Below, one piece after another: positions 1 to 17,754 of a DNA stretch of 64,000 nucleotides. The DNA comes from a virus (Duplodnaviria; Caudoviricetes). Both the position numbers and the translations under genes were made by a program. Below the pieces are notes generated by a model. That model ran no database searches, had not been told where the DNA came from, and saw nothing but the letters and a program-made list of their open reading frames with translations. The stretch spans positions 743 to 64,742 of the IMG/VR virus record IMGVR_UViG_3300032259_000004. The stretch is one strand, 5' to 3'. Position 1 is the stretch's first letter. Each line of letters starts with the position of its first letter.

Positions 1-3000
1 TTTGACCACCGGGTCGCGGATCTCCTGAATCCTCTTGAAGTTCTCGGCGGCCTTCCGCAGGTTTCTCTTCCTCTCCTCTTCAGTCTTTTCGAGAACCTTC
101 AGCAGCCTCTTCCGGATGGCCGAGCCTTCCTTGCCAGCCCTGGCCTTCGCCTCGCGTCTCGCCGTATCGACGAAGCGGATCTGCGCCCCTCGATCTTGGG
201 CTCCGAGAATGTTCCGTATCTCCTGGGCGGATAGGTTGTTGGCGTCCTTGTCCGGCATCAACTTGGCCGCCTTCACCAGATCGCGAAGCTCATCGGTTTC
301 GAGGTTCTCCAACTTCACATCGTAGGCTTTCGCCATCGCGTTGGCGATCCGGACCCGGATCGGCTTCATTAGCTCGTCTGGAATCTCGCCCAGGTCGCCG
401 TCCATCTCATCGCGAAGATCGAAGATCGCTTGCTGTAGACGAACGAACGTCGGGAGGTCGTCCCCGTCGATGGCGTCGAGGATCTTCTCGCCCCACTCCT
501 CGTACTTCTTCGCTCTCGCCTGCCAGGTGGCATCAAGCACCTTCCCGAACCTGTCCCCGAGCTGCTCTGCGACCTCCGCCACGACCTCTTTGAGCGCATC
601 GTCGTCGATGTAGATGACATCCGGAGCGAACTCCTCGCCGAGGTGCTTTATTAAGCTGCCTCGCCTGGTCTTCGACATGAAGAGGACCCGATTGACGTCC
701 CCCTGCTGTTCGCGCGGTAGCTTCGACAGCTCGCGAAGTTGATCCCGATACCAGACCCTCATCCCGGCCTTGAGCGCATCGCGCAAGGCGATCTGATCGT
801 CCTCGTCGAGCGTGGCGAACTTCGGGACTGTCTTCCAGCGGCGCTTGAGGACCTCGCTCGACTGCACGGCGGCCTTGAGCGCGGCGTCCATGCCGGTGTT
901 CGTGATGGCGCTGTCGGTCGCGGTCCCCCATTGACCGATGTTGGCGTTCATCGAGCCCGTGATCCAGTCCCTCGCGTCGTCCCGAGTGGTCCGCTTGCCC
1001 GCCCGTATCCGGTCGCGGATCATCACCTCCAGGCCATCTCGCATCACGGAGCGCAGGCCGCCCTCTCCCTCGAACAGCTCAGCGATCTCCGGCTCGGCCT
1101 TCATCCACAGCTCTGGCGGGGCGAGTTCTTCCGCCATCTCGTCGGCAACCTTGGCCGCATACACATCAACCTTGTCGTCGACCTCCTGCGTGATGGTCTC
1201 CGTCATCTTCTGGAGCGCGAACTTGTGGGCGTCGTCGCGATCTGGCTCCAGGTCGGTGTCGAGCATCCGCTCTCGGAACGCCGCCCGATACACGTCCATC
1301 CCCCTGAAGACGATTTGGCCTGATTCGAGGTCCTCGGCTGGCATCACCTGTTTCAGAAGCTCGTGTCGACTGATCTGCGCCAATGCGGTGCTCGTCGCCT
1401 GAGCGATCTCCATGTCTGGTGGCAACACAACCTCGGTAGCCGCCTTCTGCGCCACATTGGCGACGGCATCCTCGACGGTCACAGCGTCCTTCTCTGGCCG
1501 GATCGCAGGCCGCATCCTGGACTCCTCGGCTGGCCGCGCCAGGAGCGTTGTAGATGGCCTCTCGTGACCGATCTCGGAATCGACCAACTCAAGGAACGCG
1601 CTCTCATCGTCACCCCAGATCTGCCCAGCTCGAACCCTGGCTGCGTTCAGCGCCGAGGGGTACTCAACGCCCTGTCCGGTGCCTGGAACCTCGATGAGCT
1701 GCTCTGCCCGGATGTTGCCGTCCTCGTCGAGCAGCGTCACGCGAAACGTCCACTGGCCCCGCTTCTTGGGCACGGGACCGAACGCCTTGCGGTAGGGCGC
1801 GGTGGAAGACTTCATGCCGTGATGGTCGATCTTCGGGATCTTCGGCAGCGTCGGGGTCGGGACGATCTCGGGGATCTCCGGCCCAGCCGCTTTCAGCTTC
1901 GCCGCCTTCTCCGCCATCGCCGCCTTCCGGACGTCGTGCTGGTAGTTGTTGTTCACGTACTTCCAGAACCGCGCCATCGCCTCGTCGTCTTCGAGTTCGA
2001 GATCGCCCTGCCAGCGATTCCGGTAGAGCAGCAACCGGCCCAGCGTGGTGGTTCCGGTGAGGCGAGGATCGTCGAGTGCCCCGAGGTCGATCTCCAGGTC
2101 GAGATCCGCGAGCTTCCACATGGCCTTCGGGTCTGGATCGGCGAGGATCGTCAGGAGTCGGTTGCGGTCCTCGGGGCTCAGTGCGTCGAGGATCTGGCGC
2201 GTGATGTGCGGATCGCCCGCCGCGCCCCACGGCTCCTCCGAGATCCGTCCTGGCCCCATGACGGCGGTGATCTTGTTCCGCACGTTGTCCCAGGCTCCTT
2301 GGTTGGGTGTGAACCCATACCGAGCCCAGGCATAAGAGCCGTTCGAGGTGGCGTCCGGGATGTGGATCTTGGAGACCCCGATCTTCTCGTACCACTCCAT
2401 CGAGTTGCGCATGATGTGGCGCCCGAGACCGCGCGCAATCGGGTCCACGTAGAGCGCGTCGTGATCGACCTCGACGCTGCCATCGGCCTTCTTGTTGAAG
2501 GTCCGCATGATGTCGAACATTTTGTTGCCGTCTTTGTCCGCGTACTCGATGTGGACGAACCCGGTGCGCTCGTTGGGGTCGATGCTCACTGTCATCGAGT
2601 TGATGTGCGTGGCGTCGTCCGAATCTTCGATGATCCGGATCATCCAATCCTCGACCTCCTGGTCTTCGCCGAAGAGGTTCTGCCAGGCCCGGTGCATCTC
2701 GTCGAGATCGACATCCTCCTCCCGCGCTCCACCCTTGGCCGTCTTCAGCAGCGAGAGCTTGATGTCGGGCTCGACCTCCACCGCACCACCGCCAGGATCG
2801 GTGACCCGGATCGGCTTGAGCAGCGTTTCGAGCTTCTGGCGAGCGGTGACGTACTCGACCCTTCCGGATTCCTCGATCCGCTCCCAGATGTCCCAGGCTT
2901 CTCGGCCCTTGGCCTTGTCCAGGAAGCGGGTCAGCGCATCCCGGTTGTGGACGTAGATCTTGCCGTCCTTGCCCTTCGATTCGAGGATGAGCTTGGCAAC

Positions 3001-6000
3001 GCCACGGACCTCGTTGTCCCAGATGTTGATCTCGTCGAAGAGCGACTCTTCCAGGGCGTTCATCGCCCGCACCGTGACGGTCCGATGGGCGCCGCGAAGA
3101 ATTGGATCTGGCACCCCTCGACCCATCTTGGCCTCGCGCATCTTGGCGAGCTTGGCGGCGAGGTCTTCGGGCAGCGTGTTGTAGTCGGCGACGACCCGGT
3201 AGCCTCGCTTCCTCGCCATCTCGATCTTCTTCTTGAGACCCTCCAGGCTGCCGTCTCCGGTGCCGTCGAGGACCATGTGGGTCTTCCTCTTGGCAGCCAC
3301 CCGGCGCAGGGCCTCCTTGACGAGGTAGCTCGACTCCTCGTGGACAACCTGGGCGTTCTCGACGCTGCGCAACTTGAGGAGCTGCTGGTACTCCGGCAGC
3401 CAGTCTTTGATGGCGTCGGCGTTCAGCAGCGCGTGACCCTTCGGCAGCGAGTAGTAGCCCGCCTCGATTCCGGTGCTCTTGCCCGAAGCCGGGCCGCCTC
3501 CCATCATGTGAAACGTCAGCTCGTCGACGTCGATGTTGTCGGAGTCCTCGATGATCGTGTTGACCATGTAGTCGAGGATGGTCTCGTGCAGCTCGCGCCG
3601 CTCTGGGGTCCACTCCCCCTCCGGCGTCTTGTGCATATTCTGGGTCTCTTGCTTCGTGCCGGGCTCGTGCCACTGATCGACCTCGGCCTGGATCTTCTCG
3701 CGCTCCTCGCCCTCGGCCTCCTTCGCCATCCACTTGAGGAACTCCTCGTCGCCGGGGTGATCGCCTGGAGCTTCGGAATCGAACTTGGCGGCAGCCCTGG
3801 CTCCCACCTTATAGGAGAGGCCCTGGCGCTCCAGCACCTCGTCGAGCTTGTGCTCGAACTGGTTCTTCGCCAGCTCGCGCCGGTACTTGTTCCCGACGTA
3901 GTGCCAGAAGCGCGTCATCTGCTCCGGGTCGTCGAGCTGGATGCGAGCACCCCAGTAGCTATTCCTGGCAACGAGCACCTGGCCCAGCTTGAGCGCGTCC
4001 TCGACGCCATCCGGATCGGGCACCACGAGATCGAGATCGGCCAGTTGCCACATGGCCCTGGGGTCCGGGCTGCTGAGGATGTCGAGGACCCTGGCCTTCT
4101 CGTCGTCGGTCAACGCCTGGAACGCTCGGACCATCTTGGTCTGGTCGGCCCAGCCGCCCTCGAAGTCGATGTCCTCCGCGCCGCCCTTGCCCAGGAGGAC
4201 GCGGCGGAGCTTGTTTCTCCAGGTCATCCACTGGTTCGGCCCAGTCTCGAAGCCGTAGCGTGCCCAGGCATACGGCCCGACGTCAGCGGTGAAGGGGATC
4301 TCGATTTGCCGGACGCCGATCTTCTCGTAGAACTCGACCATGTTGTGCATCACGTCGCGACCGATGCCCCGGTACTTCTCATCGACGTAGAAGTTGCCGT
4401 GCCGTGCGACGAGCCGCCCGTCCTTGCCCCGGTAGATCTCGCGGGCCAGGTCCATGATCTTGTCGCCGTCCTCGTTGACGACTCGCAGGCCGATTTCGAT
4501 CTTCGGGAACTCGTCAGCCGTGTCGATGTCGATGTCGAGGTGCTTGAAGCTGTGGCCTTCGTCCACCTGGCGGACGATGCCCGAGAGGTAGTCTTCGAGT
4601 TCGATCCCGAACTCTTCTCGCACCTCCTCGATGAGATCGTCGAGCCCCGCCTCCACGGCTGGCATCCGGGAGCCCTCGACGCGGCGTGTGATATTGCCGG
4701 TCCAGAGCAGGTCGTCATCGACGTCCTTGCCCTCGCTCTGCGCGAGCATCTTCCGGAGCTTGCGGCTCGCGCCCCTGTACTCGACCTTGCGCCCGCTCGC
4801 GAGGATGCGATCCCAGGCATCCCGAGCCTCCTGGCCGCCCTTGTCAAGGAACCGCCGCAGGGCCTCGCGATTGCGCACGAAGATCGTGCCGCCACGAGTC
4901 GCGTCGAGGATCGCCCGAGCCTTGCCGCTGATCTCCGTGTCCCAGAGTCGCATCTCGTCGAAGAGGTCCCGCTCCAGGAACTCAATCGCGCGAATCGAGA
5001 CGGCCCTGTGCACTCTGCGTGTGACGCCCTCAGCCACCCAGCGACCCGTCCGCTCGGCTCGGTTTTTCGAGTAGAAGACCGCCAGGTCGGTGGGGTTCGA
5101 GGAGTAGTCCACCACGAGGCGGTAACCGGCCTCTCGCATCCGCGTGAGCGTCCCGACCATCGAGTCCAGGTCGCCGTCTGCGGTGCCGTCCATGACGATG
5201 TTGTGGGTGCCCTGAGCGAGCAGTCGGCGGTGGATCTCCCAGGTGATGTCGCTCGACTCCAGGTGAACAAGCTCGGCCCCTTCGTAGCGCCGGGCCTTCA
5301 GGAGCTTCTGGTACTCCGGGAGCATATTCTTGATGTCGTCCGCCGCGATCATCGAGTGGTTGCGTGGCAGCTTCACGAACCCGGATCGGATCGAGGTCGT
5401 CTTGCCTGCCGCGATCCCGCCACCCATCATCTGATAGGTCAGCTCCTCGACCTCTTCGGTGCCCTCCTCCGACGTGATGATCTTCTTCATCACGTAGTTG
5501 ATGATCTCCTCGTGGAGTTCCTTGCGCTCGGGCGTGTACTCGCCTTCGGCGTCGGTGTGCATCGCCTTCGTGGAGCCCCGCTCGATGATCTCGTCCAGCT
5601 CCGGCGCCAGCTCGTCCTTGAGCGCGTCGTCAGCCTCTTCCTCTAGCCACTTGACGTAAGCCTTGTCGTCGCCGTGCTGACCCGGTGAGTCGTCGAACGC
5701 CTTGCGCTTGGCGAGCCGCTCCTCGATGTCGGGCAGCTCCAGCTCATCCGGGGTCTTCGCCGCCTTCTCGGCCTGGAGAACCGCCCGCTGGATCGCCCCC
5801 TCGGCGCGGTCGTCGTCATCGACATAGCGCCAGAACCGAGCCATCTGCTCCCCGTCTTCGGTGTCGAGCTTGAGTTCGCTGAACGCCTGGCGCTTGAGCA
5901 GGGCGTAGCCGAGCTTCACCTCAAGGGATTCGCCGTCGGTCATGTAGTCACTGGAGATCGTGACCTTCTGCGACAGAGCTGCGAGATCCTGGAGGGCGCT

Positions 6001-9000
6001 CGGGTCGGGGTTGTCGAGGATCGCGAGCACCTCCTGCTGGACGTTTCCAGGTAGCGCGTCGAACCACCGCTCCAGATCCTCTGGCGTGTCGGCGAAACCG
6101 AAGGGCTCGTTGAACCCTGGGTACTCGTCGTCAGTGGCAGATCCGGTCAGTGCAGCTCGGAGCGGTTTCCGAACTTCGTCCCACGATCCTGCGTCGGCCT
6201 GGAATCCGTAGCGCGGCCAGGCGTAGGCCCCGTCGTTGACGGCGCTCGGAATCCTGACCTCGTTGATGCCGAGCTTTTCGTACTCGATGAAACTCGCCCG
6301 CATGAACTCCTTACCCGCGCCCCGGTAGTCGGGGTCGACGGTCATCACTCGATGCACGGCGCGGAGCCTTCCGCCGCTCAGGAGTTCGATCTCTCGACTG
6401 ACGAAGAGGATCTGCTTACCTTCGGCGTCGATCAGGTTGAACGAGAAGTAGACCTTTGGAACCTCGTCGACCTGATTGATCGCGATCCCCATGCTGTCGA
6501 TGTGGTCAACGCCCTCGATGCTGTTCGCGATGTTGTAGAGGAAGTCGTCCAGGCTCTCGTCGGTGCCGAGCGCCTCCTTCCACTGATCGTTCATCTCCTC
6601 GCGGCTGAGGAAGGTTCTCTGGACCTTGCCGTCCTTATCCTTCCAGGTGCGTCGGAGGCTTGCGCCCTCGGGCAGGATCTCTTCGAGGTCCTTGCGGGCC
6701 GGGCAGCCTGGGAACTCCGGATGCTCCAGGCAGGTCCTTCGCCAGGCGCGCCCGTAGAGCAGCTCGCTCTCCTTCGCCAGGCGCTTGTATTCCGGGTCGG
6801 TCTTCGGCAGCACGCGCATCTTCTTGTAGAGCGTGTGACCCTTGCCAGCCTTGGCGAGAAGCATGGGCCGGTTGTTGATCTGGACCTCGGCCTTCATGCC
6901 ATCCTTCAGCGTCAGCTTGAAAATCACATCGCGGTAGCCCGCAGGCCCCGCGTTCAGCATCCGGTTCTTGAGACCGACGGGCTCGTCGATGGCCTCCAGC
7001 TTCTCGAAGAGCTTCATCGCGTCCGCTGGGTCGTCCACGACGAAGGTCATGCGGAGCACATCCCCGACCTGCGAGAGGTCGCCATCGTAGTCCGTCATGG
7101 CCTTCTCGGCCACGCGCTCGGCAGTCTTCAGTGGGCCGTAGAAGTAGCTGTTCGGCGTCGGGTCCTTGAAGCTGCTCATCTCCATGCCCAACTCGCGAGC
7201 CACGGCGTCGATCAGCTCGTTGTACTCGTCTTCGTTGTCCGCAGCTCGGGCGATGTAGGAGAGGACCTTCTGCTTCTCGGGCTCGGAGAGCGAGAGGAAC
7301 ACCGCGTCGGGCTCGATGTCTTCGCCATCCTCGACCTTCTTGACCAGCTCCAGGGCCGCCTTCTCTGGGCTGATGACGTTCTCGCGCGGCGGCTCCTTCA
7401 TCCTCTTCTTGGCCTCGAAGGTGCGCTCCTCGTCGCCAACGTAGCGCCAGAAGCGGACCATCTGGGCGTCGTCCTTGAGGTCGATGGAGCCGGACCACTC
7501 GGTTCGCATCGTCAGCGCTCGACCGAGCGGCATCTCGACCTTGGGCCGCGCGACAACCGCAGCCTCGTCGTTCAGGGTGGCTAGCTTGATCTTGACCCTG
7601 GTCTCCAGGTCAACGAGGCGATGGAACGCTGCGGGATCGGCATCCTCCAGGATCTCGATGACCGACTCGCGCAGCTCCTCGGGGAGGCCCTCGAAGAAGG
7701 CGCGCATCTCCCTGTTGTTATGCGGGACGAAGTGACCCAGGCCGCGCTCGCCCTCGATGTCGCTCTCCGGTCCATAGAGCCAGCGGGTGAGGTAGCGCCG
7801 ATAGTCGTCCCACTCGTCCTGCTTCATCTTGAAGCCGTAGCGGCCCCAAGCGTAGGAGCCGACGTCCACGGCGAATAGGCTGACTTCATCGGCCCCCATC
7901 TCGTCGTAGGCGTCGAAGGCTGCCCACATCATCTTCTTCCCCAGGCCGCGCAGCTCGGGGTGGATCTCGATGCTGGTGTGGTGGACGTGGAGCTTGCCGT
8001 CCGTGTCGTGACCGAAGCGGATCGCCCAGTGAAACTTGACATTCGGGTTAGCGGAGTCCTGCGCGTACAGCACGAACGAGATCGAGTCGCCCCCGCTCTT
8101 GTGCTGATGGTAGGTGGTCATAATCCCGGTGACGTCCAGGTCGATGTCGGCTTCTGAGAGGAGCCTGGTCGCGTACTCGTCCAGGTCGATGTCGGTGGTC
8201 TCCTTGATCCACGCCATCGCCTTCTCGACATCCGACAGCGTGGCGTCCGTGCTCCCCGGTAGATCGGGCAGGATGTCCTCCACGTCGCCGTTCGCCAGGG
8301 TGCGCGAGATCTTGACCTCGTGAGCGAAGGTGCTGCGGCCTCCGGGGACAGCCTTGTCCAGGGGCTTGATCTTCTGCGGGCAGCCTGGGAAGGTCGGGTG
8401 GATCTTGCACGTCCTCAGCCATGCCCGGCCATACAGCAGCTCCGACTCCTTGGCGAGCCTCTTGTACTCCGGCGTCCCCTTGTCGAGCACCCGCATGGCC
8501 TCGTAGAGCTTGTGCCCTGGTCCGTTCTTCGCCAGGAGCATCGGGCGATTGTTGATCTGCACTTCAGCCTTCATCCCGTCTTTGAGGACGAGCTTGAAGA
8601 TGACATCCCGGTAGCCGCCCGGTCCGGGCTCGATCATCCGGTTCTTGACACCCTCCGGAGCATCCAGCTCTTCGAGCGCTCGGAGCACCTTGGCTGCGTC
8701 CGCAGGATCATCGACCACGTAGGTCATCCGCAGGACGTCGCCCACCTGGCTGAGATCTCCGTCGTAGTCACCCAGCGCCTTGGCCGCGACCCGCTCCGCC
8801 TTCTTCAGGGGGCCGTAAAAGTAGGTCTCGGGCTCGGGGTCCGCGAAGTCGCCGTCGGTCATCTTGAACTGCTTGGCAACCGCGTCGATGATGGCCTTGT
8901 ACTCGTCCTCGTTGCCAGCCGCTCTCTCGACGTACTGAGCGACCCTCGCCTTGTCGGCATCCGAGAGCGCCAGGTAGAGCGCGTCGTCGTCGATCTTGCC

Positions 9001-12000
9001 GCCGTCCTCGACGATCTGGAGCAGCTCCTTGACCTTCGGGTTGTTGTGGTCGATCTGGAGGGCCGTCGGGACGTCCGGCTTCTTGTCGGCCTCGGGGATC
9101 GCGGCCTGGTAGAACCTCGGCACCATCGGGTCGGGTCCTGGCACATCCGGAGGGTCGGACATCCCCATCGTGCGGTAGAGGGTCAGGATCGCGTCCTTCA
9201 TCGACTCCCGCCACTCGTCTCCCGCGAGAGGTGACTCTGGGACGACGCCGTTGAGCCCTTTCCGGTAGACCGCCGCGTAGAGTTCGGTGACGACCTCGTT
9301 CCAGTTGAACATCATGTCGTCTTCCGACGCATAGCCGGAGATCGACCGGAAGTAGAGCACCCGGAACTGGTTCTGGGACATCTGGCCCGTGGCCCCGCGC
9401 TGCGCGACCGCGATCACGTTGTCCATCGCGTCGCGGATTTCCTCCGAGGCGTAGTGCTGGATGTAGTGCATCATCTCGTGCTGGAAAACCTCGCGCAGGT
9501 TCCCCTCGGACAGGTAGCCTCGATTGAACGCCTTGAGCACGATGCTCTCGACCGACTCTCCCTTCGCGGCCATCCGGTCGAAGAGCGACTTGTTCCAGTC
9601 GATGCTCATCTTCCGGTAGTTGAAGCCGAACAGCGAGCCGCGCGTGGGCCAGTCAACATCCTTGCCGTCGGTGAGTTCGCGCAAGAGTGGCAGCTTGAAG
9701 CGATGCTGGGCTCCGACGATCTCCTCTACCAGCTCTCGGGCCATGTCTCCCAGCCCTTCGAGCTTGACCAGCCGCACGGCCTCATCGGCCTCCTCCAGCG
9801 CCTTCGCGACCGATCCAAACTCGTCGATCTTGTCGTTGTCGGACAGCGCCAGGATGCGTGCGCGTTCTACGCGGGCCTCCGCCAGGACGTCCTTGTCGAT
9901 GATGTGGTCGAGCGCCCATCTTTCCAGCTCGCGGACGTCCTGGAACTCCGGCACCTGGGGCATCTCGCCGTCGCGCTGCTTGGCGAGGTTCGCGATCATC
10001 TTGTTGAAGAAGTCCTCGGCGGCCTCTGAGTCCGGGCTCGGCTCGCTCACAACGAGACGCATCTTGAGCCGGTGGTTGAGGGCGTCCACCATCCGGTCGC
10101 CCGCCTCGTTCACCCAGTCCGGCCAGTCGGCCCGCTTGTAGTTCGGGTCGGTGATGATCGTGAACAGCTCCGCGAAGGCATCGGCGAAGTCGGCGTCGGC
10201 CTTCTTCGAGAGGTCCGCTGCAACTCGCCCCTTGTTCGCCAGGAGCACTTGGCGAATCCCCCCGGCCTCCTCGTACTCGTTGTTCATCATCCTCTGGAGG
10301 CGATAGCCGAGCCTGGCTCTCAGGACTCGACTCCAGGTGTTCGCAACGGTGTCCACGCCTGGGGCGAAGGGCTGGTCAGAGGTCAGCGTCTCGACCAGAT
10401 CGAGGAAGTTCTCGACGTCGTGGAAAAAGCTCGTGCCGATGCCCGCGATGTCGCCAGCCGGTCCGTCACCGTCAACGAGATCGAACCTCGTCATGGCTTT
10501 CTTCAGGCTCACGTAGATCTGCTCTGGCAGCTCGTCGCTGTCGAGGATCTGTCGAAAGACCGGGTTGTTCCAGTTGGCGTTGAGGGCCTCCTGGAGAACG
10601 GCCAGGCGCTCCGGGTCGATCTCCTTGATCCCGGCGTCCTTGCCTATGAGCTGACGCTTGATCTGCGCGAAGGTGCTGTGTTGATTTGCCCGCCAGGCGA
10701 TGTACTCGTCGCTGAACGGGAGGCCGGTGCGCGGGTCGATGTTCTGGTCCGGGAGATCCCCCCGGAGAGTCAGCTTCTCGTTCCAGTCGTCGGTGGCCTC
10801 GGCCAGGGCGCGCGCGGTCTTCGTCTCCGTGGTCTGGAGGATCGGCCCATCGTTGTCCTTCGCCCACTTCTTCGCAGCCCGGACGCGCTCGTTGGTGCGC
10901 TGCCGGGGGATGACCTTCGGAACGTCCGGCTTGCGATCAATCGCTTCTCCCACGATTCGCGCCCTCATTGCGGTGTTCGTGGGGATCATCACCTCCGCTT
11001 CGGCGATGGTCTGGCCTGAGCCGTAAGTCTGCGACGGCTTGAGCTTGATCTCGAACAGATCGCCGCCATTCTTGTCGATGAACTTCTGCGCCGTGCGCTT
11101 GTCGAGAGAGAACGACTGGAACGTGTTCCTTGCGTCCGATCCCGAGAGCTTCCCGCCCCGATAGAGGGTGTACTCCGTGTTCAGGAACTCGTCGAACGGG
11201 ACCTCCTTCCCGAGAAGGTCTTCGACCTGCCTGTGCATGATGTTCAGCGCGGCATCGCGGGCGTCTTGCGACTCGTCCATCGCCTCCGTGATCGTGCGCT
11301 TGTAGGCGATGTCTTCCCTGCGAAACCAGCCGACGTGCGCGTTCTCCGGGATCTCGCGCTCGAAGACCTCGATGGCCTCGGCGCGTGACATCTGCCTTGC
11401 CTTGTACGACGGGCGAAGATCCGCCTGCGGCATCACCTGGCTCGGAGCCTTCTTGCCTGCGGGCTGCGTCATCTCGCGGACGCTGATGGTCCCGTCGGTC
11501 TTCCGCATCTCGTAGGTGATGTGGGCCTTGTCGTCTTCGATGACGTTGCTCGTGATCCTCGCTCGATTGCTGCCCATCTTGAGCACGTCGCCTTCGCGCA
11601 GCTCGCCGAAGGTCGCGTCTCGTGCCTTGAAGAACTCCTGCTCCGGCGTCGGCTTCGGCTTGGGCTTCGGGAGCCGCCCCTCCTTCTTCGCCTTCATCGT
11701 GAGGAGCCGCTGCATCTGGCCGCGTTCGAGCCACTGGTCGAGCTTCACGATCTCGGCATCGCTCAGGGTGAGGAAGAGCCGGGCGTCCTGGGCGACGAGC
11801 TGTGAGAGCGACATCATGCGGCCCTGCGGATCGGCGAACTTGTGGATCGAGATGTCGGGGTTCGTCCGGTACAGCCTGCCCCGGTAGCGTCCCAGGACGA
11901 AGTTCTGCATCTCCGCGTTCTGGCGCCGGAGCCAGCGGTTGTAGGTGACCTTGCCCGAGGTTGTGCCGTCGAGCATGGCGCGCTCTCGGGGCGTCCTGCG

Positions 12001-12900
12001 CACCTTGCCCCGCAGCTCGGGGACCAGCTCGCCGTAGCTCTTGAGAACGGGAGCCGTGGTCGTGCGACAGGAGTAGTGGAACGGCGGCCTGGGGCCGGAG
12101 CCCACGGGGTAGACCTCCCCGTCCTCCGTCTGGCAGATCAAGGTCGTGCGCCCGTCGAGGGTGGCGACGATCTGGATCGACTTCACGATGTCGTCGTTCG
12201 CCTTGTATAGCTCCTCGCGGCTCGCAGTCGTGACGTGGTTGACGCTCGTGCGCACCAGGGTCTCGGCCTCGTATCGGCGCTTTCGGGACGTCCAGGCGCC
12301 ATCTGAGAACTTGAAGCCCTTGGTGCCGATGACGTTCGAGGTGATCTGATCCACCGTCTCTCCGGCGATCACCCCGCGCTGGATCGTCTGCGCAACGGAC
12401 GCGAACTGGCTGGCTGCGAAGTCGCTGATGTGCTCGCCGTAGAACTTGGCGTTCTCACCGCCGTAGGGCAGCTCCGTGACCAGGCTCTTGAGGGTATTGG
12501 AGGAGGGCGTGGAGTAGTTGACGGACAGGGGAACGAGTCCCGAGAGGAGCCTCTCTTGAAAGCCAACCTCCCACTCCCCCACGCCCTCCAAGGCGCTGAT
12601 GAGATGATCGTCGATGTTCTGGACAACGCCATCCACGTACTTGCGGATCGCTTCGAGCTGAACGGCAGCTCGGGCCGAGACCACGGGGCCTGGATCGTAG
12701 CCGAGCGGCAGGGCTCTCGCGAGCCTGGATCGCAGCAGGTCTTCGAGCTGTCCACGGCTGTCTTCGAGGACCTTGACGATCTCGGCGCTGATGGCGTTCG
12801 AGTGGCGGAGCAGGCCGACCTGATGCCCGATCATGGCATCGGCCAGGGCGCCGTTGACGGTCTGCTGGAGCGCCTCCCGAATGGCAGCTTCGGTTGCCAC
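1..12900 (-). CDS. Giant MuF (SPP1 gp7-like head morphogenesis) polyvalent protein, >=4300 aa, 3' end outside window
   Basis: GTG at 12900 overlaps the TAG of the upstream gene. Hand translation of this frame shows no stop down to base 1. N-terminus MATEAAIREALQQ...RYEAETLVRT...ATLDGRTTLIC...PPFHYSCRTT is the MuF core. It is followed by ART (TLYRG/FQSFS/EAEV), HEMMH zincin, 2 RelA/SpoT-like, 2 zeta-like P-loop and 4 GNAT domains. Confidence 0.9.
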   Translation of the reverse strand, partial: MATEAAIREALQQTVNGALADAMIGHQVGLLRHSNAISAEIVKVLEDSRGQLEDLLRSRLARALPLGYDPGPVVSARAAVQLEAIRKYVDGVVQNIDDHLISALEGVGEWEVGFQERLLSGLVPLSVNYSTPSSNTLKSLVTELPYGGENAKFYGEHISDFAASQFASVAQTIQRGVIAGETVDQITSNVIGTKGFKFSDGAWTSRKRRYEAETLVRTSVNHVTTASREELYKANDDIVKSIQIVATLDGRTTLICQTEDGEVYPVGSGPRPPFHYSCRTTTAPVLKSYGELVPELRGKVRRTPRERAMLDGTTSGKVTYNRWLRRQNAEMQNFVLGRYRGRLYRTNPDISIHKFADPQGRMMSLSQLVAQDARLFLTLSDAEIVKLDQWLERGQMQRLLTMKAKKEGRLPKPKPKPTPEQEFFKARDATFGELREGDVLKMGSNRARITSNVIEDDKAHITYEMRKTDGTISVREMTQPAGKKAPSQVMPQADLRPSYKARQMSRAEAIEVFEREIPENAHVGWFRREDIAYKRTITEAMDESQDARDAALNIMHRQVEDLLGKEVPFDEFLNTEYTLYRGGKLSGSDARNTFQSFSLDKRTAQKFIDKNGGDLFEIKLKPSQTYGSGQTIAEAEVMIPTNTAMRARIVGEAIDRKPDVPKVIPRQRTNERVRAAKKWAKDNDGPILQTTETKTARALAEATDDWNEKLTLRGDLPDQNIDPRTGLPFSDEYIAWRANQHSTFAQIKRQLIGKDAGIKEIDPERLAVLQEALNANWNNPVFRQILDSDELPEQIYVSLKKAMTRFDLVDGDGPAGDIAGIGTSFFHDVENFLDLVETLTSDQPFAPGVDTVANTWSRVLRARLGYRLQRMMNNEYEEAGGIRQVLLANKGRVAADLSKKADADFADAFAELFTIITDPNYKRADWPDWVNEAGDRMVDALNHRLKMRLVVSEPSPDSEAAEDFFNKMIANLAKQRDGEMPQVPEFQDVRELERWALDHIIDKDVLAEARVERARILALSDNDKIDEFGSVAKALEEADEAVRLVKLEGLGDMARELVEEIVGAQHRFKLPLLRELTDGKDVDWPTRGSLFGFNYRKMSIDWNKSLFDRMAAKGESVESIVLKAFNRGYLSEGNLREVFQHEMMHYIQHYASEEIRDAMDNVIAVAQRGATGQMSQNQFRVLYFRSISGYASEDDMMFNWNEVVTELYAAVYRKGLNGVVPESPLAGDEWRESMKDAILTLYRTMGMSDPPDVPGPDPMVPRFYQAAIPEADKKPDVPTALQIDHNNPKVKELLQIVEDGGKIDDDALYLALSDADKARVAQYVERAAGNEDEYKAIIDAVAKQFKMTDGDFADPEPETYFYGPLKKAERVAAKALGDYDGDLSQVGDVLRMTYVVDDPADAAKVLRALEELDAPEGVKNRMIEPGPGGYRDVIFKLVLKDGMKAEVQINNRPMLLAKNGPGHKLYEAMRVLDKGTPEYKRLAKESELLYGRAWLRTCKIHPTFPGCPQKIKPLDKAVPGGRSTFAHEVKISRTLANGDVEDILPDLPGSTDATLSDVEKAMAWIKETTDIDLDEYATRLLSEADIDLDVTGIMTTYHQHKSGGDSISFVLYAQDSANPNVKFHWAIRFGHDTDGKLHVHHTSIEIHPELRGLGKKMMWAAFDAYDEMGADEVSLFAVDVGSYAWGRYGFKMKQDEWDDYRRYLTRWLYGPESDIEGERGLGHFVPHNNREMRAFFEGLPEELRESVIEILEDADPAAFHRLVDLETRVKIKLATLNDEAAVVARPKVEMPLGRALTMRTEWSGSIDLKDDAQMVRFWRYVGDEERTFEAKKRMKEPPRENVISPEKAALELVKKVEDGEDIEPDAVFLSLSEPEKQKVLSYIARAADNEDEYNELIDAVARELGMEMSSFKDPTPNSYFYGPLKTAERVAEKAMTDYDGDLSQVGDVLRMTFVVDDPADAMKLFEKLEAIDEPVGLKNRMLNAGPAGYRDVIFKLTLKDGMKAEVQINNRPMLLAKAGKGHTLYKKMRVLPKTDPEYKRLAKESELLYGRAWRRTCLEHPEFPGCPARKDLEEILPEGASLRRTWKDKDGKVQRTFLSREEMNDQWKEALGTDESLDDFLYNIANSIEGVDHIDSMGIAINQVDEVPKVYFSFNLIDAEGKQILFVSREIELLSGGRLRAVHRVMTVDPDYRGAGKEFMRASFIEYEKLGINEVRIPSAVNDGAYAWPRYGFQADAGSWDEVRKPLRAALTGSATDDEYPGFNEPFGFADTPEDLERWFDALPGNVQQEVLAILDNPDPSALQDLAALSQKVTISSDYMTDGESLEVKLGYALLKRQAFSELKLDTEDGEQMARFWRYVDDDDRAEGAIQRAVLQAEKAAKTPDELELPDIEERLAKRKAFDDSPGQHGDDKAYVKWLEEEADDALKDELAPELDEIIERGSTKAMHTDAEGEYTPERKELHEEIINYVMKKIITSEEGTEEVEELTYQMMGGGIAAGKTTSIRSGFVKLPRNHSMIAADDIKNMLPEYQKLLKARRYEGAELVHLESSDITWEIHRRLLAQGTHNIVMDGTADGDLDSMVGTLTRMREAGYRLVVDYSSNPTDLAVFYSKNRAERTGRWVAEGVTRRVHRAVSIRAIEFLERDLFDEMRLWDTEISGKARAILDATRGGTIFVRNREALRRFLDKGGQEARDAWDRILASGRKVEYRGASRKLRKMLAQSEGKDVDDDLLWTGNITRRVEGSRMPAVEAGLDDLIEEVREEFGIELEDYLSGIVRQVDEGHSFKHLDIDIDTADEFPKIEIGLRVVNEDGDKIMDLAREIYRGKDGRLVARHGNFYVDEKYRGIGRDVMHNMVEFYEKIGVRQIEIPFTADVGPYAWARYGFETGPNQWMTWRNKLRRVLLGKGGAEDIDFEGGWADQTKMVRAFQALTDDEKARVLDILSSPDPRAMWQLADLDLVVPDPDGVEDALKLGQVLVARNSYWGARIQLDDPEQMTRFWHYVGNKYRRELAKNQFEHKLDEVLERQGLSYKVGARAAAKFDSEAPGDHPGDEEFLKWMAKEAEGEEREKIQAEVDQWHEPGTKQETQNMHKTPEGEWTPERRELHETILDYMVNTIIEDSDNIDVDELTFHMMGGGPASGKSTGIEAGYYSLPKGHALLNADAIKDWLPEYQQLLKLRSVENAQVVHEESSYLVKEALRRVAAKRKTHMVLDGTGDGSLEGLKKKIEMARKRGYRVVADYNTLPEDLAAKLAKMREAKMGRGVPDPILRGAHRTVTVRAMNALEESLFDEINIWDNEVRGVAKLILESKGKDGKIYVHNRDALTRFLDKAKGREAWDIWERIEESGRVEYVTARQKLETLLKPIRVTDPGGGAVEVEPDIKLSLLKTAKGGAREEDVDLDEMHRAWQNLFGEDQEVEDWMIRIIEDSDDATHINSMTVSIDPNERTGFVHIEYADKDGNKMFDIMRTFNKKADGSVEVDHDALYVDPIARGLGRHIMRNSMEWYEKIGVSKIHIPDATSNGSYAWARYGFTPNQGAWDNVRNKITAVMGPGRISEEPWGAAGDPHITRQILDALSPEDRNRLLTILADPDPKAMWKLADLDLEIDLGALDDPRLTGTTTLGRLLLYRNRWQGDLELEDDEAMARFWKYVNNNYQHDVRKAAMAEKAAKLKAAGPEIPEIVPTPTLPKIPKIDHHGMKSSTAPYRKAFGPVPKKRGQWTFRVTLLDEDGNIRAEQLIEVPGTGQGVEYPSALNAARVRAGQIWGDDESAFLELVDSEIGHERPSTTLLARPAEESRMRPAIRPEKDAVTVEDAVANVAQKAATEVVLPPDMEIAQATSTALAQISRHELLKQVMPAEDLESGQIVFRGMDVYRAAFRERMLDTDLEPDRDDAHKFALQKMTETITQEVDDKVDVYAAKVADEMAEELAPPELWMKAEPEIAELFEGEGGLRSVMRDGLEVMIRDRIRAGKRTTRDDARDWITGSMNANIGQWGTATDSAITNTGMDAALKAAVQSSEVLKRRWKTVPKFATLDEDDQIALRDALKAGMRVWYRDQLRELSKLPREQQGDVNRVLFMSKTRRGSLIKHLGEEFAPDVIYIDDDALKEVVAEVAEQLGDRFGKVLDATWQARAKKYEEWGEKILDAIDGDDLPTFVRLQQAIFDLRDEMDGDLGEIPDELMKPIRVRIANAMAKAYDVKLENLETDELRDLVKAAKLMPDKDANNLSAQEIRNILGAQDRGAQIRFVDTARREAKARAGKEGSAIRKRLLKVLEKTEEERKRNLRKAAENFKRIQEIRDPVVK

Positions 12901-13532
12901 TATGGGACCACCTCGAAGCCAAGAGCGTCAACGATGATCTGATCGAGACTCTCCTCCATGCGCTGCCACGAGGTTGGGTCGTATTCGAGCCTCCAAAGCT
13001 CTTGGTAGTAGTAGCCGGGGTCGAAGTAGGAGTCGGCGAGCTGGTAGCGGTACTGGGCGAAGCCGACCCGTGAGTGTGAGGGCTCGATGTTCAGCCAGTC
13101 GCCGACCTTCTCGACTGCCGCGCCAGGAGCTTCGAGAATCCACTCGTAGCGCAGGAAGAGCTTCTCGTAGCAGTCCACCCCGAGCCAGGAGCGGTGTTGC
13201 TGGCTCCAGGCTCGCCCAGGTCGGTAGCGGTTGACGAACTCGTGGAACGTGCCGCCGTGCCAGGGCTCCGGCATCCAGGTGAGTTGGAGCCCGCGATCCT
13301 CGCTCGCCGTCCGAGACGCCCATCTCCACACCGAGACAGCCCAGGCCATCGGGTGCTTCGAGATGACGAAGAGCCGGTCCGATCCGGTCCCGTAGTGGTC
13401 CCAGTCGCGGTGCTTGTTCGCGGGCTGGAGCGCGACACTTGGAAAGTGCTCCCCGAAGAGCCACCGTTGGGCGAAGTTGGTGCCGGAGCGCTGGAGGCCC
13501 CGGAGCATCACCGGGAATCTCTCACCCGCCAT
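12900..13532 (-). CDS. Sulfotransferase-family protein
   Basis: GLQRSGTN (5'-PSB-like), ISKHPMAWAVS (3'-PB-like), FLRYE; translationally coupled to MuF. Confidence 0.65.
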   Translation of the reverse strand: MAGERFPVMLRGLQRSGTNFAQRWLFGEHFPSVALQPANKHRDWDHYGTGSDRLFVISKHPMAWAVSVWRWASRTASEDRGLQLTWMPEPWHGGTFHEFVNRYRPGRAWSQQHRSWLGVDCYEKLFLRYEWILEAPGAAVEKVGDWLNIEPSHSRVGFAQYRYQLADSYFDPGYYYQELWRLEYDPTSWQRMEESLDQIIVDALGFEVVP

Positions 13533-14480: not shown

Positions 14481-16037
14481 CTAGGCATCGCCCCCTTCCA
14501 GGTCCTCGGCGTCATCCCCGGCGTTCTGCGGCATCTTGTCCTTACCTGCCGCCATGAGCCCGGCCAGGCTCGCCAGCGAATCGTTGTCGTCCTTCGAGTT
14601 CTCTTCCAGCCGATCTGCCTCCTCCTTCTCGTCGAAAGCGTCCGAGAGGATGTTGCGCCGCTTCCACTCACTCCACATCGTCTCGCGGCTGATCTGTCCT
14701 TTCGACTCTGCCTCAGCCAGCATCTTCCCGACCTCCGAGTCATGCAGCGCGATCCCGAAGTCGGTGTAGACCTTCAGGCTGCCGCCGCCGCTGGTGATCC
14801 CCCACTGGTCCGCCGTATAGGCCGTGCCGATCTCCAGGGAGTCCTGGAGGCCCTCGGCCATCGCCTGAAGGGCACTGTGAGCCTCGGCGGCTTCGACGCC
14901 TGTCTGGGTCGCTGTGATGTCGCCCGTCTTCGGGAGCAGGAGACGCATCGCGACGTCGCCCATCTGCTCCATCAGGTCGTTCAGGTCATCTCGACCGGCA
15001 CCGATGGCGTTGCCATTGATCTCGACGTAGCTGAGAGCAGCTTCGGAGTTCTCCTGGGTGATGAGCCGGTTCGGCCCGATCTCCAGGGAGTCTCCAGGAG
15101 CACTGACCCAGCCCTTCGCGAAAAGCAGCGGCACACGAGCGACGTGGAGGATGTGGCGCTGGTCGGAGCTGGACTGCCAGTGAGCCAGGTTCAAGTAGGC
15201 GAGGTCGAGCAGCGGAGGCGCTCCCACCATGTAAGCGACCCGCTTCGTGTAGACGGGGACGATAGGAATGTAGCCTATCGAGGTCTTGCCCTGCGCCAGG
15301 AGCCGATAGCGGCCCTCCTCGTCGTCCTCGATGGGGACGTACTGAGCCCAGCCGCCCGGCACGAGCACCATCACACCCTCGACATCCTCCTCGGTGAAGT
15401 CATCGCGGTCGACGGTGAGGTCGATCTTGACCCGGAACTGCGACAGGAACAGCCGCCCGTTGTAAATTTCCGTCTTCCAACCCAGGACGTCATCGGCCCG
15501 ATACTGGACCCAGTAGACGCGCTTCTCCTTGGCCGCTCTGTCTGACTTCCGGAGCTTCACGACGTTACCCTGCTCATCCTTGGGCTCGGCCTGCATATCA
15601 ACCAGGAAGTAGGAGATGCCATCGAGCAGCGCATCCATGAAGACATCGCGAGCGAAGATGTTGAGGTGCCTGCCGGTGTTGTCGATGTTCTCCATCCACT
15701 CCCTGACGACGGGAGGGACGTCCTCGCCGATGTCGATGGGCCTGGCGAACGGCTTGCCGCCGAGCACCTGAACGGTGCGCGAGATCCCGTTGTAGAGGAA
15801 CGTGCGCTGGAGCCTCGACTCGTAGGCCGCATTCGTCTCGCCGGGCTCCTGCGGCAGATACGTCTTGCCCAGCGCTCGCATGACCTCGGTGCCGCCGTAG
15901 ACGGCTCGCACTGGCGCCCTCTGAGCTGCCATTGCCTGAACGACAGGCGTCGGTGTCGCGATCTCCAACGGCGCCGTCTGCGGCCAGTTCAGCCCCTCTC
16001 CGAAGGACGACTTCAGTTGTGCTTGGGCTTCAGCCAT
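14481..16037 (-). CDS. Phage portal protein (DUF4055-like)
   Basis: YLPQEPGET..YESRL, PPLLDLAYLNLAHWQSSSDQRHILH motifs; 518 aa; follows terminase. Confidence 0.9.
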   Translation of the reverse strand: MAEAQAQLKSSFGEGLNWPQTAPLEIATPTPVVQAMAAQRAPVRAVYGGTEVMRALGKTYLPQEPGETNAAYESRLQRTFLYNGISRTVQVLGGKPFARPIDIGEDVPPVVREWMENIDNTGRHLNIFARDVFMDALLDGISYFLVDMQAEPKDEQGNVVKLRKSDRAAKEKRVYWVQYRADDVLGWKTEIYNGRLFLSQFRVKIDLTVDRDDFTEEDVEGVMVLVPGGWAQYVPIEDDEEGRYRLLAQGKTSIGYIPIVPVYTKRVAYMVGAPPLLDLAYLNLAHWQSSSDQRHILHVARVPLLFAKGWVSAPGDSLEIGPNRLITQENSEAALSYVEINGNAIGAGRDDLNDLMEQMGDVAMRLLLPKTGDITATQTGVEAAEAHSALQAMAEGLQDSLEIGTAYTADQWGITSGGGSLKVYTDFGIALHDSEVGKMLAEAESKGQISRETMWSEWKRRNILSDAFDEKEEADRLEENSKDDNDSLASLAGLMAAGKDKMPQNAGDDAEDLEGGDA

Positions 16038-17729: not shown

Positions 17730-17754
17730 CACCTTCCGGTGAAGGCTCGGCGGA

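Follow-up and report, generated by a model that had tools for sequence, protein, structure and literature searches.

A giant MuF-type head protein of a sediment phage with an array of predicted enzyme domains

The locus and the integrity of the giant gene

The window analysed here, a 64,000-nt stretch covering bases 743-64742 of a linear IMG/VR virus record of 64,742 nt, opens with a single minus-strand frame that, by ORF listing and translation, runs without a stop from a GTG at 12900 to base 1 of the window (4300 codons), as the initial annotation had reported. That annotation set a minimum of 4300 residues, which holds: the frame stays open up to the first base of the contig, giving at least 4547 residues, and a database protein encoded on another contig, of 47.8 kb (P0002), is 100% identical and 4698 residues long, corresponding to a full-length protein of about 530 kDa. 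Beyond the window the gene covers 742 nt of contig and at least 453 nt past the contig end; extension toward the stop codon, suggested at the outset, reaches the contig end with the frame still open, and the length comes from P0002 and from a C-terminus shared with an orthologue (P0003). The GTG start is preceded at about 7 nt by a GAGGTGG Shine-Dalgarno sequence and shares one base with the TAG of the upstream ORF (TAGTG overlap). The gene sits on the same strand after the genes for the terminase large subunit and the portal protein, in the packaging and late structural module, which is the canonical place for the MuF-family head protein that had been recognised there. The Pfam inventory of the window also contains DUF4055 (E 8e-35), which probably belongs to the portal ORF. 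The features of the locus are listed below; the domain coordinates agree with those first proposed to about 100 nt.

1..12900, minus strand: giant MuF polyvalent protein gene, first 4300 codons (open frame, P0002)
11707..12867, minus strand: MuF / SPP1 gp7-type head-morphogenesis core, residues 12-398 (phrog_241, E 6e-89)
11386..11643, minus strand: short segment rich in beta strands, residues 420-505 (also conserved in P0003 and P0153; a low-confidence model shows three strands)
10906..11388, minus strand: putative R-S-E ADP-ribosyltransferase (ART)-like domain, residues 505-665 (motifs and hhalign)
9964..10905, minus strand: variable middle region, residues 666-979 (27% identity to the orthologue)
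9106..9963, minus strand: zincin-like region ZN1, residues 980-1265, with HEMMH at residues 1141-1145, window 9466-9480 (invariant motif)
8332..9027, minus strand: RSH1, Tas1/Apk-like putative (p)ppApp synthetase domain, residues 1292-1523 (Tas1 match)
7351..8223, minus strand: G1, GNAT with helical insertion, residues 1560-1850 (RGLGK, family evidence)
6658..7350, minus strand: RSH2, second Tas1/Apk-like domain, residues 1851-2081 (67% identity to RSH1)
5755..6597, minus strand: G2, GNAT with helical insertion, residues 2102-2382 (module comparison, motif)
4747..5697, minus strand: Zeta1, zeta/AvrRxo1-type P-loop kinase, residues 2402-2718 (Pfam Zeta_toxin, Walker A GGIAAGKT)
3811..4638, minus strand: G3, GNAT with helical insertion, residues 2755-3030 (module comparison, motif)
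2821..3783, minus strand: Zeta2, zeta/AvrRxo1-type kinase, residues 3040-3360 (best Pfam stretch 3131-3297; 45% identity to Zeta1)
1876..2700, minus strand: G4, GNAT with helical insertion, residues 3401-3675, the modelled copy (AF2 pLDDT 91.8)
1..1875, minus strand: beginning of the A/E/L/R/K-rich tail, residues 3676-4300 (composition; no family match)
Outside the window: ZN2, C-terminal HELGH region, residue 4472 (phrog_33618, E 2e-11)
12900..13532, minus strand: 210-residue ORF coupled to the MuF start (TAGTG), no family match in profile searches
14481..16037, minus strand: portal protein gene (phrog_145, E 5.5e-101)
16254..17792, minus strand: terminase large subunit gene (phrog_2, E 2.8e-32)

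The open frame by itself proves little, because antisense ORFs of up to 1427 residues occur in the same DNA, which has a GC content of 63%. Its coding status is established by homology, by the orthologue P0003 (4564 residues, 62% identical, colinear, with the same domain order and C-terminus, and from a different data set) and by a bias of the population variants towards synonymous changes: 17 of the 24 variants in the gene are synonymous, the seven non-synonymous ones are concentrated at 10224-10283 in the variable middle region, and none creates a stop. The gene is spanned by a single 21.5-kb contig from X1, a run flagged as a potential origin of the sequence; contigs of the independent sediment-metagenome runs X3, X4 and X5 cover it piecewise with about 100% identity and no supported indel, and in three runs without that flag pieces of 0.5-2.6 kb cross domain borders free of gaps. 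Independent assemblies thus tile the gene with no supported indel or stop, which answers the concern about misassembly and frameshifts raised with the initial annotation. Logan contigs from several runs contain short-sided joints and loose ends within the gene (e.g. at 3147 and 4045); the sides of these joints are only 20-21 letters long and are flagged as typical of other organisms or repeats, and we judge that they derive from other sequences and not from a rearrangement of the giant gene. No RNA dataset carrying the gene was found among the listed sequencing runs. The frame is a genuine, intact gene encoding a MuF-type head protein of about 4,700 residues in an uncultivated tailed sediment phage.

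Domain families of the array

The protein is predicted from its sequence to hold about eleven enzyme domains in one polypeptide. At least five different domain families occur within its 4698 residues, a combination of several unrelated effector domains as found in phage polyvalent proteins (PMC5512222). Two RSH and two zeta domains form the central array, each followed by a GNAT with an insertion; paralogous domains share 67% protein identity in the RSH pair, 45% in the zeta pair and 30-36% among the four GNAT modules. The MuF core, the two RSH domains, the two zeta/AvrRxo1-like kinases and the four GNATs with a helical insertion of about 90 residues are well supported. Eight of the ten enzyme domains originally proposed were accordingly recovered (two RSH, two zeta and four GNAT), while the ART call is of moderate strength (hhalign 68%) and the zincin call weak (HEMMH, a sub-threshold SprT-like match and language-model leads only).

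The MuF core (residues 12-398) matches the 'head morphogenesis' family phrog_241 (E 6e-89) and eight further head-protein (MuF-type) PHROGs. The Pfam MuF model PF04233 gives no match to this copy at E <= 0.01, so that the MuF call rests on the PHROGs; a search of PDB sequences with the core likewise returned no significant match.

The RSH domains match Tas1 (6ox6) among PDB sequences with E 1e-9, and tblastn relates them to MuF (Apk2) proteins of S. pneumoniae prophages (33% identity, E 5e-5) and to Bordetella phage PHB04. The Pfam RelA_SpoT model scores only 16.1 bits (cut-off 27), and the synthetase motifs EVQI and DxxR (GDVLRM) are retained in RSH1, RSH2 and the orthologue. Apk2 domains of the pneumococcal prophage MuF proteins have been shown experimentally to make (p)ppApp (PMC12226406). 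By their sequence relationships, the RSH domains would probably make (p)ppApp and not (p)ppGpp, which preserves the earlier link to (p)ppNpp signalling and corrects the nucleotide concerned.

Two stretches of the protein match Pfam Zeta_toxin (E 1.8e-32, 112.8 bits against a cut-off of 22.3), with Walker A motifs GGIAAGKT in Zeta1 and GGPASGKS in Zeta2. Against the PDB, Zeta2 matches AvrRxo1 at E 5e-4 and zeta at E 3e-3, both of them marginal, and against NCBIfam Zeta1 gives a weak XopAJ/AvrRxo1 match (E 0.017). AvrRxo1 is an NAD 3'-kinase, and the substrate of zeta/PezT is UDP-GlcNAc. The two domains thus appear slightly closer in sequence to AvrRxo1 than to the cell-wall-targeting zeta toxins and, because of this slightly better match (E 5e-4 as against 3e-3), the cell-wall nucleotide precursors named as a target in the initial annotation are not specifically supported.

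The fourth GNAT module, G4, was modelled with AF2 at a pLDDT of 91.8. Its top Foldseek matches are all GNATs (probability 0.97-1.0), as are the top matches of a VIA-wide search (Z 6-7.3, over residues 1-254), and BFVD contains whole-module matches down to E 5e-11; Bacillus phages CP-51 and JL are among the carriers of the module. All four copies contain YAWxRYGF and the acetyl-CoA pyrophosphate-binding motif RGxG[KR], the latter also conserved in the orthologue; Acetyltransf_1 scores 23.4 bits on the whole protein (cut-off 20.7) and 59-66 bits in relatives. The family to which these modules belong has about 3,300 cluster representatives; its members often recur within one protein and are found both in head proteins of phages and in giant toxins of mycobacteria. 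A fusion to Phage_Mu_F was found in 15 of 71 GNAT-module relatives, other fusion partners being portal, minor capsid protein 2, ADPrib_exo_Tox, Zeta_toxin, InPase, Acb1 and LPD23, and stand-alone MuF-RSH-G and MuF-Zeta-G proteins exist. The module is present at many sites in bacterial genomes, with PF04233 below threshold at the expected place in one of five genomes carrying G-bearing ORFs of 600 residues; a tblastn search of 50,697 phage records with the G module gave no match. The 'Ct_MAD' domain of Jamet et al. is probably not this module, given its link to the C-terminus of COG2369. In a tree, the eight modules of both orthologues group in a single clade with the module of the MuF-RSH-G protein P0008 (support 99), and the four GNAT modules therefore arose by duplication inside this lineage. 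The modules do not sort by toxin type in the tree, and they lie often in direct tandem or right after MuF (32 of 75 gaps are shorter than 60 residues, with no toxin between). Between the two orthologues they are 43-59% identical, compared with 70-78% for the toxin domains, which corresponds to a divergence about twice as fast.

Upstream of this array, residues 505-665 carry the ART-like motifs R581, S596-F-S598 and E634-A-E636, invariant in three proteins, with a spacing from R to ExE of only 55 residues. Comparison of this region by hhalign with the Pfam-verified ADPrib_exo_Tox family gave a probability of 68% (E 5e-5) with the motifs in register, controls reaching at most 1.3%, and its atlas neighbours are ART-fold families only, including DUF4765, an ART-like family (PMC7883292). 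The segment has no significant match in Pfam (E <= 1), PDB sequences, the PDB profile search, NCBIfam or tblastn against phages, gives a marginal PHROGs match to phrog_7449 (unknown function, E 0.005), and in word-based homology searches found P0153 only. We regard an R-S-E ADP-ribosyltransferase identity as moderately supported by these sequence comparisons. An AlphaFold model of residues 420-1290, which include the ART-like, middle and ZN1 regions, was built from three sequences and proved unusable (pLDDT 36.6).

Both HExxH motifs, HEMMH at residue 1141 and HELGH at residue 4472, are retained by the orthologues. ZN1 gives a SprT-like match below threshold (E 0.0065, 16.8 bits against a cut-off of 25.6), and its atlas leads are zincin families and LPD1/LPD23. 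The same phage carries MPTase-PolyVal in a separate ArdC-N gene; the MPTase-PolyVal model did not match the HExxH regions, and hhalign probabilities among ZN1, ZN2, a different HEIGH segment in the middle region of P0003 and the phage's MPTase-PolyVal were 0.4-13.6%, the best being that between the HEIGH segment and ZN2. ZN1, ZN2 and the tail had no significant match among PDB sequences, and tail residues 3676-4300 had none in Pfam, PHROGs, NCBIfam or PDB. A zincin-like nature of the two HExxH regions is thus weakly supported.

Proposed role and alternative explanations

Among relatives of the giant protein, P0011 (6205 residues) and P0007 (7601 residues) are larger still, and P0153 is compact, with the order MuF, ART, tail and C-terminal HExxH, suggesting that a scaffold as simple as that of P0153 acquired the enzyme array by insertion. 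Searches for DNA that is related to the gene or lies downstream of it, by 24-kb megablast against phage records, by exact 40-mer in viral contigs and with the C-terminal 333 residues in metagenome contigs returned nothing useful, and peptide-pattern scans of viral contigs (P0002, A3) returned one distant MuF only.

We interpret the protein, with a probability of about 0.8, as a giant MuF minor head protein (SPP1 gp7-type) of the polyvalent protein / MuF polymorphic-toxin class that would serve as an injected multi-enzyme payload. By analogy with the MuF, Alt/polyvalent and Apk2 families, a few copies would be recruited into the procapsid through the MuF part, and the protein would exit the capsid along with the DNA. 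Its domains, perhaps freed by the HExxH peptidases (a conjecture, because both zincin calls are weak), would then become active as soon as they enter the host cell: ATP would be consumed by the Apk domains in making (p)ppApp, NAD or nucleotides of the UDP-GlcNAc type would be phosphorylated at the 3' position by the kinases, and host proteins would be modified by the ART and GNATs, with the net effect that host metabolism or defence is shut down or sensitive cells are killed. Against this reading, the phage itself would suffer from an early loss of ATP in the infected cell. In addition, published MuF-Apk2 toxins need the adjacent immunity genes iapK and aph1 (PMC12226406), and a search for an HD-type hydrolase or epsilon-like immunity gene found none in the record, which is 77% complete and lacks the DNA directly downstream of the gene; the tolerance of four toxin-type domains by the producing cell is therefore a difficulty for this reading.

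The same domains could instead constitute a MuF polymorphic toxin of a temperate phage, acting mainly as a weapon against non-immune competitors or in superinfection exclusion, with its immunity genes in the missing downstream DNA. This explanation overlaps the payload reading and differs from it in purpose only, killing as opposed to takeover, and we consider it possible if rather doubtful. The toxin types concerned (RelA-like/Apk, ART and metallopeptidase) all figure in the published list of MuF toxins (PMC5576092), the bactericidal Apk2 toxins of S. pneumoniae prophages, which are paired with iapK and aph1 (PMC12226406), are homologues of the RSH domains, and the many bacterial-genome sites of the G module would fit prophages; yet no integrase or repressor family is among the Pfam hits of the 70 ORFs, nor was an immunity-like HD hydrolase found in the 77%-complete record. 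It is improbable that the enzyme-like domains are mostly inactive relics and that the protein chiefly provides structural mass inside the head or in an ejection channel. The great size of the protein, its long stretches called helical without a family match, the fast divergence of the G modules (43-59% identity as against 70-78% for the toxin domains) and the occurrence of inactive domains in certain MuF proteins, PBECR in Mu gp30 being an example (Iyer et al., PMC5512222), would be in keeping with such a role, but each copy, like the orthologue, retains its catalytic signatures (GK[ST], EVQI, DxxR, RGxG[KR], the RYGF tyrosine, R/STS/ExE and HExxH) and the population variants are mainly synonymous.

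An assembly artefact, be it a chimera or a repeat-driven mis-join of smaller MuF-toxin genes, is an explanation to which we attach almost no weight. Internal paralogous repeats and the joints and loose ends of the Logan contigs could be read in its favour; the paralogues, however, are at 30-67% protein identity too divergent to mislead an assembler, the X1 contig spans the gene, three other runs tile across domain borders, and the 62%-identical orthologue has all domains in the same order in a different data set. A further proposal concerns the array itself, in which each G module would be the built-in partner (a safety catch or activator) of the toxin domain before it, forming self-contained toxin-GNAT units that need no separate immunity genes. 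The strict toxin-GNAT alternation seen here, the stand-alone MuF-RSH-G and MuF-Zeta-G proteins and the failure to find an immunity gene count for it, and the G modules, diverging about twice as fast as their toxin partners, may resemble binding-type immunity proteins, which diverge fast (PMC12226406). Counting against it are the kept GNAT catalytic motifs, the tandem G modules without a toxin and the tree without sorting by toxin type, and we hold it to be unlikely. If it were true, four lethal nucleotide-modifying enzymes could be made and packaged without separate immunity genes, and the same logic would apply to the mycobacterial multi-toxin giants.

Relation to known systems and significance

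Phage polyvalent proteins with 2-15 domains, which include MuF, ART, MPTase, RelA/SpoT, zeta-like kinase and GNAT domains, were described by Iyer, Burroughs, Anand, de Souza and Aravind in 2017 (PMC5512222). In the light of that range and of the larger relatives P0011 and P0007, the initial annotation set the usual number of effector domains in such fusions, one or a few, too low. Like these proteins, the giant protein is a very large polypeptide encoded in the portal-terminase late module, with a MuF hub joined to ART, zincin-like, RelA/SpoT-like, zeta-like kinase and GNAT domains, and in both cases travel with the DNA is a prediction. It differs in its roughly eleven predicted catalytic domains, in which the Apk-like and zeta-like domains come in tandem pairs and a single GNAT family is present four times, and in its HExxH regions, which do not match MPTase-PolyVal. 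Two GNAT families have been described in polyvalent proteins (PMC5512222).

Comparison with better-characterised proteins places the array further. The pneumococcal MuF-Apk2 toxins share an N-terminal MuF and a RelA/SpoT-like domain with the giant protein, but they have a single C-terminal toxin domain with adjacent iapK and aph1, whereas here two internal copies stand in an array. With the zeta/PezT and AvrRxo1 kinases it shares a Pfam Zeta_toxin match well above the cut-off and the Walker A motif, and with AvrRxo1 an N-terminal 'W-PER-LHE' helix; in contrast to them, its two kinase copies are fused inside a predicted virion protein, and no epsilon-type antitoxin is seen in the 77%-complete record. 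T4 Alt (ART), N4 virion RNA polymerase (~3500 residues) and P1 DarB are large capsid-carried enzymes that enter the cell with the DNA and act before phage gene expression (PMC5512222); each has one or two activities, as opposed to an array, and for the giant protein packaging is inferred only from the MuF domain and the gene position. Arrays of the same GNAT-with-insert modules between toxin domains are found in giant actinobacterial multi-toxin proteins (Mycobacterium WP_462145658.1, 7601 residues, and WP_036475922.1, 6971 residues), a cluster-mate of which, P0009, carries Gln_amidase and Abhydrolase_8. Those proteins are chromosomal, have no MuF by the profiles used, and are presumably delivered by a secretion system instead of a capsid.

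All domain types of the giant protein are already catalogued in polyvalent proteins or MuF polymorphic toxins, and for this reason it represents an unusually large addition to a known class and not a new kind of system. With about eleven predicted enzymes in 530 kDa, it illustrates the extent of domain accretion in phage polyvalent proteins and draws attention to the large, unannotated GNAT-with-insert family. It also raises the question of how a producing cell survives while making such domains. If the domains are active, the protein would provide a compact candidate set of enzymes for disabling host nucleotide metabolism or nucleotide-based defence at DNA entry.

Extent, coding and assembly of the giant MuF gene

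The giant MuF gene lies on the minus strand, where the ORF listing and translation carry a single unbroken frame from GTG 12900 to base 1 of the window (4300 codons, zero stops), as the initial annotation had read it. The window represents bases 743-64742 of one linear 64,742-nt IMG/VR virus record, 77% complete by CheckV, and the frame continues uninterrupted as far as the record's first base and so encodes 4547 aa or more; the 247 residues beyond the window include a second HExxH motif. The initial annotation had proposed extending the contig to reach the stop codon. None occurs up to record base 1, but a word-indexed homologue search of 5.8 billion proteins recovered two giants that supply the missing end: P0002 (4698 aa, from a 47.8-kb contig), 100% identical across the part covered here, and the orthologue P0003 (4564 aa, from a Logan assembly), 62% identical. 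Since the C-termini of these two are homologous, we place the full length at ~4698 aa; the computed mass is 530 kDa and the pI 5.1. A Shine-Dalgarno sequence (GAGGTGG) precedes the start, and the GTG shares one base with the stop of an upstream 210-aa ORF (TAGTG); this coupled ORF (12900-13532, minus strand) had no match in Pfam, PHROG or NCBIfam, so a sulfotransferase-like label for it finds no support.

High-GC DNA yields long spurious frames, so an open frame by itself is no evidence of coding; an antisense ORF of 1427 aa is present within the gene. Three lines of evidence, namely run contigs, variants and the orthologue, establish both that the frame is coding and that its assembly is correct. 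DNA of the gene is present in nine sediment-metagenome runs (at least 72% of sampled words in five), and contigs of four were aligned to it, one from a run marked as a possible source of the DNA (X1) and three from runs not so marked (X3, X4 and X5). One 21.5-kb X1 contig covers all 13.6 kb of the gene with two substitutions and no gap, while X3, X4 and X5 contigs of 0.5-2.6 kb tile it at ~100% identity and run across domain borders. The frameshifts and stops that, by the initial annotation, would betray a misassembly did not appear in these contigs: no indel is supported in any of the four runs, and the 24 listed population substitutions comprise 17 synonymous changes, 7 non-synonymous changes and 0 stops. 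P0003 carries all of the domains in identical order, and the paralogous domains, just 30-67% identical as protein, are too divergent for repeat-driven mis-assembly. A few 'joints' in the run contigs have sides of 20-21 letters, flagged by the tool as typical of other organisms.

Several local features accompany these alignments. The IMG/VR record stops at contig base 1, 742 nt left of the window within the C-terminal HExxH region, and so does a Logan contig of X1 that was assembled independently; assemblies are broken at this base by some feature, for example a strain variant or a repeat. A variant cluster at window 10222-10283 (residues 873-893, in the middle segment) holds four of the seven non-synonymous changes; at this position P0003 has a different, HEIGH-containing insert and the segment is 27% identical. 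The region looks like a hypervariable or exchangeable cassette. At the junction of the third GNAT module and the second zeta domain (window 3147-4045), X3, X4 and X5 contigs match over ~900 nt, with two synonymous G>A changes (3997 and 4006), and then run into unlike sequence on both sides, the loose-end letters being identical in all three runs. This suggests that another phage in those sediments shares the module in another setting, which would mean module exchange.

Domain make-up of the protein

Residues 12-398 match MuF-type head-morphogenesis PHROGs (E 6e-89), with no match on the protein to Pfam PF04233 (MuF). Directly upstream on the same strand are the portal (phrog_145, E 6e-101) and the terminase large subunit (phrog_2, E 3e-32), which form a same-strand block with two small ORFs; the position after terminase and portal is canonical for a MuF/gp7 gene and, together with the PHROG match, bears out the proposed head-protein identity.

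The effector domains read from sequence alone were largely recovered. By sequence, the protein unambiguously has two zeta-toxin domains (Pfam, 112.8 bits against a cut-off of 22.3), both with an intact Walker A motif; among solved structures AvrRxo1 is the closest (E 5e-4), followed by zeta (E 3e-3), and an N-terminal W-PER-LHE helix is common to both domains and AvrRxo1. The two RSH domains, 67% identical to each other, reach just 16 bits on Pfam RelA_SpoT. A profile of the pair nevertheless matches Tas1, a T6SS (p)ppApp synthetase, at E 1e-9, and tblastn matches 'head morphogenesis' proteins of S. pneumoniae prophages in their C-terminal parts; these proteins are the MuF-Apk2 toxins, which are bactericidal and whose only product is (p)ppApp (PMC12226406). 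Both domains end in a C-x2-H-P-x-F-P-G-C-P motif (residues 1498-1508 and 2057-2067; window ~8377-8409 and ~6700-6732), invariant in the orthologue and with no counterpart in the Tas1 alignment, which may form a small metal-binding or disulfide knuckle.

Searches of Pfam, PDB sequences and NCBIfam gave no match for residues 505-665, previously read as an ART, and the sole PHROG match was marginal, to a family of unknown function. The ART motifs (R, S-x-S, E-x-E) are invariant in all three proteins with the segment, however, and its ESM-Atlas neighbours are ART-fold families throughout, including DUF4765, the ART-like D4 domain of CNF toxins (PMC7883292). When its profile was compared with that of an ADPrib_exo_Tox family built up from a Pfam-verified domain of the relative P0004, the probability was 68% (E 5e-5) with the three motifs in register, against 1.3% and 0.1% for two control profiles. 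We regard the segment as probably an ART.

The zincin calls for the two HExxH regions are weaker. HEMMH at residue 1141, in the region read initially as a zincin, is conserved in orthologues, but its SprT-like match is sub-threshold and is joined by zincin-type Atlas leads. HELGH at residue 4472, beyond the window, is likewise conserved, in a region matching C-terminal parts of phage PHROGs, one of them a 'minor head protein' family. Profile-profile comparison detected no relationship among the two regions and MPTase-PolyVal. The middle segment (666-979) and tail (3676-4400) had no family match and are 27-31% identical between orthologues.

The GNAT-with-insert module and origin of the array

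The four GNAT modules are ~270 aa each, share 30-36% mutual identity and keep the motifs RGxG[KR] and G-x-YAW-x-RYGF. An AlphaFold model of the fourth, from 58 sequences, reached a pLDDT of 91.8, and all leading Foldseek and VIA-align matches are GNATs. As these alignments reach residue ~250, we read the module as one GNAT fold with a ~90-residue helical insertion, and rejected a GNAT plus second domain. Relatives pass Pfam GNAT cut-offs (up to 66 bits summed over copies), and the four GNAT domains of the initial annotation stand.

Exhaustive profile searching found 3319 cluster representatives at E <= 1e-3. Whole-module BFVD matches include Bacillus phages CP-51 and JL (E down to 5e-11 across the set) and an uncultured-phage 'head morphogenesis domain' protein. 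Among 71 relatives, the module co-occurs with Phage_Mu_F in 15 and InPase in three, and also with LPD23, ADPrib_exo_Tox, Acb1, Zeta_toxin, topoisomerase IB, portal and minor capsid protein 2. In the genomes of bacteria from many phyla, it usually makes up the final 200 residues of 300-630-aa ORFs. Larger arrays include P0011 (6205 aa, MuF at the N-terminus), P0158 (4782 aa, five ART domains) and chromosomal Mycobacterium giants of 7601 and 6971 aa (P0007, P0155). Annotations of the latter name a glutamine-deamidase toxin and alpha/beta hydrolase, and their cluster-mate P0009 has glutamine-deamidase and alpha/beta-hydrolase toxin domains. Successive modules in multi-module proteins are separated by <60 aa in 32 of 75 cases, so the toxin-module alternation is specific to this lineage and no general rule.

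Compact relatives bear on how the array arose. P0153 (1437 aa) comprises MuF, a beta region, an ART segment 73% identical to that of the giant, a helical tail and a C-terminal HExxH; P0008 is laid out as MuF-RSH-GNAT and P0117 as MuF-Zeta-GNAT. In a tree of 226 module instances, the eight modules of both giant orthologues and that of P0008 form one clade (SH-like support 99), with no supported split by toxin type inside it, and the P0117 module falls outside. The simplest history compatible with these sequences is that an RSH-GNAT unit entered a MuF-ART-tail scaffold, after which internal duplication took place and the kinase domains were acquired, the array being assembled wholly before the two giant orthologues diverged. 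Between orthologues, the GNAT modules are 43-59% identical versus 70-78% for the toxin domains.

Genomic setting and proposed role

Additional genes of the window
18833-19651, minus strand: IS110-family gene (phrog_4285 transposase, E 9e-51; Pfam Transposase_20, E 1.6e-5)
31737-32687, plus strand: ArdC-N (E 1e-28) and MPTase-PolyVal (117.5 bits) gene (Pfam)

The IS110-family gene stands just beyond the terminase. The ArdC-N/MPTase-PolyVal gene, in the plus-strand early region, is a classic anti-restriction or polyvalent module; being separate, it gives the phage two different 'polyvalent-type' proteins. Some of the Pfam matches hint at a tail of podovirus type, namely those to the podophage Gp77 fibre-tail adaptor, to GP88 and in two Laminin_G_3 proteins; the inventory also has RusA. 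The only Sulfotransfer_3 signal in the record (window 51590-51799, minus strand; 18.3 bits, below the cut-off of 27) sits in a 218-aa ORF (51392-52048) among minus-strand ORFs near the window's far end. In this 77%-complete record, no gene was recognised as encoding the major capsid protein.

Established directly here are the existence and location of the gene, the domains that it encodes and the fact that their catalytic motifs are conserved; to these we add a mechanism drawn from published work on MuF, Alt/polyvalent and Apk2 proteins (PMC5512222, PMC5576092, PMC12226406). The MuF part would carry few copies of the protein into the procapsid, from which it would exit together with the DNA, to take effect immediately. 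ATP would be turned into (p)ppApp by the Apk domains, and the zeta/AvrRxo1-type kinases would add a 3'-phosphate to NAD or to UDP-sugar nucleotides. Host proteins would be modified by the ART and the GNATs, and the HExxH regions may free the domains. Alternatively, the protein could be a weapon of a temperate phage with immunity genes downstream, a reading that differs from takeover in purpose only and that we consider less likely. Within the 77% of the genome that is available, neither an Aph1-like HD hydrolase nor an epsilon-like gene turned up, the record ending inside the giant gene.

Whether weapon or, as we prefer, agent of takeover, the protein has the same domain types as known polyvalent proteins and MuF toxins. 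Phage polyvalent proteins have 2-15 domains, among which all of the types found here are described, including MuF-fused RelA/SpoT and zeta-like kinases and GNATs beside ARTs (PMC5512222), and MuF toxins with RelA-like/Apk, ART and metallopeptidase domains were described by Jamet et al. (PMC5576092) and in later work. The giant MuF protein therefore belongs to a known class, as a very large member. The literature consulted says least about the GNAT-with-insert family, which is large and unannotated, and about how multi-toxin giants use it repeatedly.
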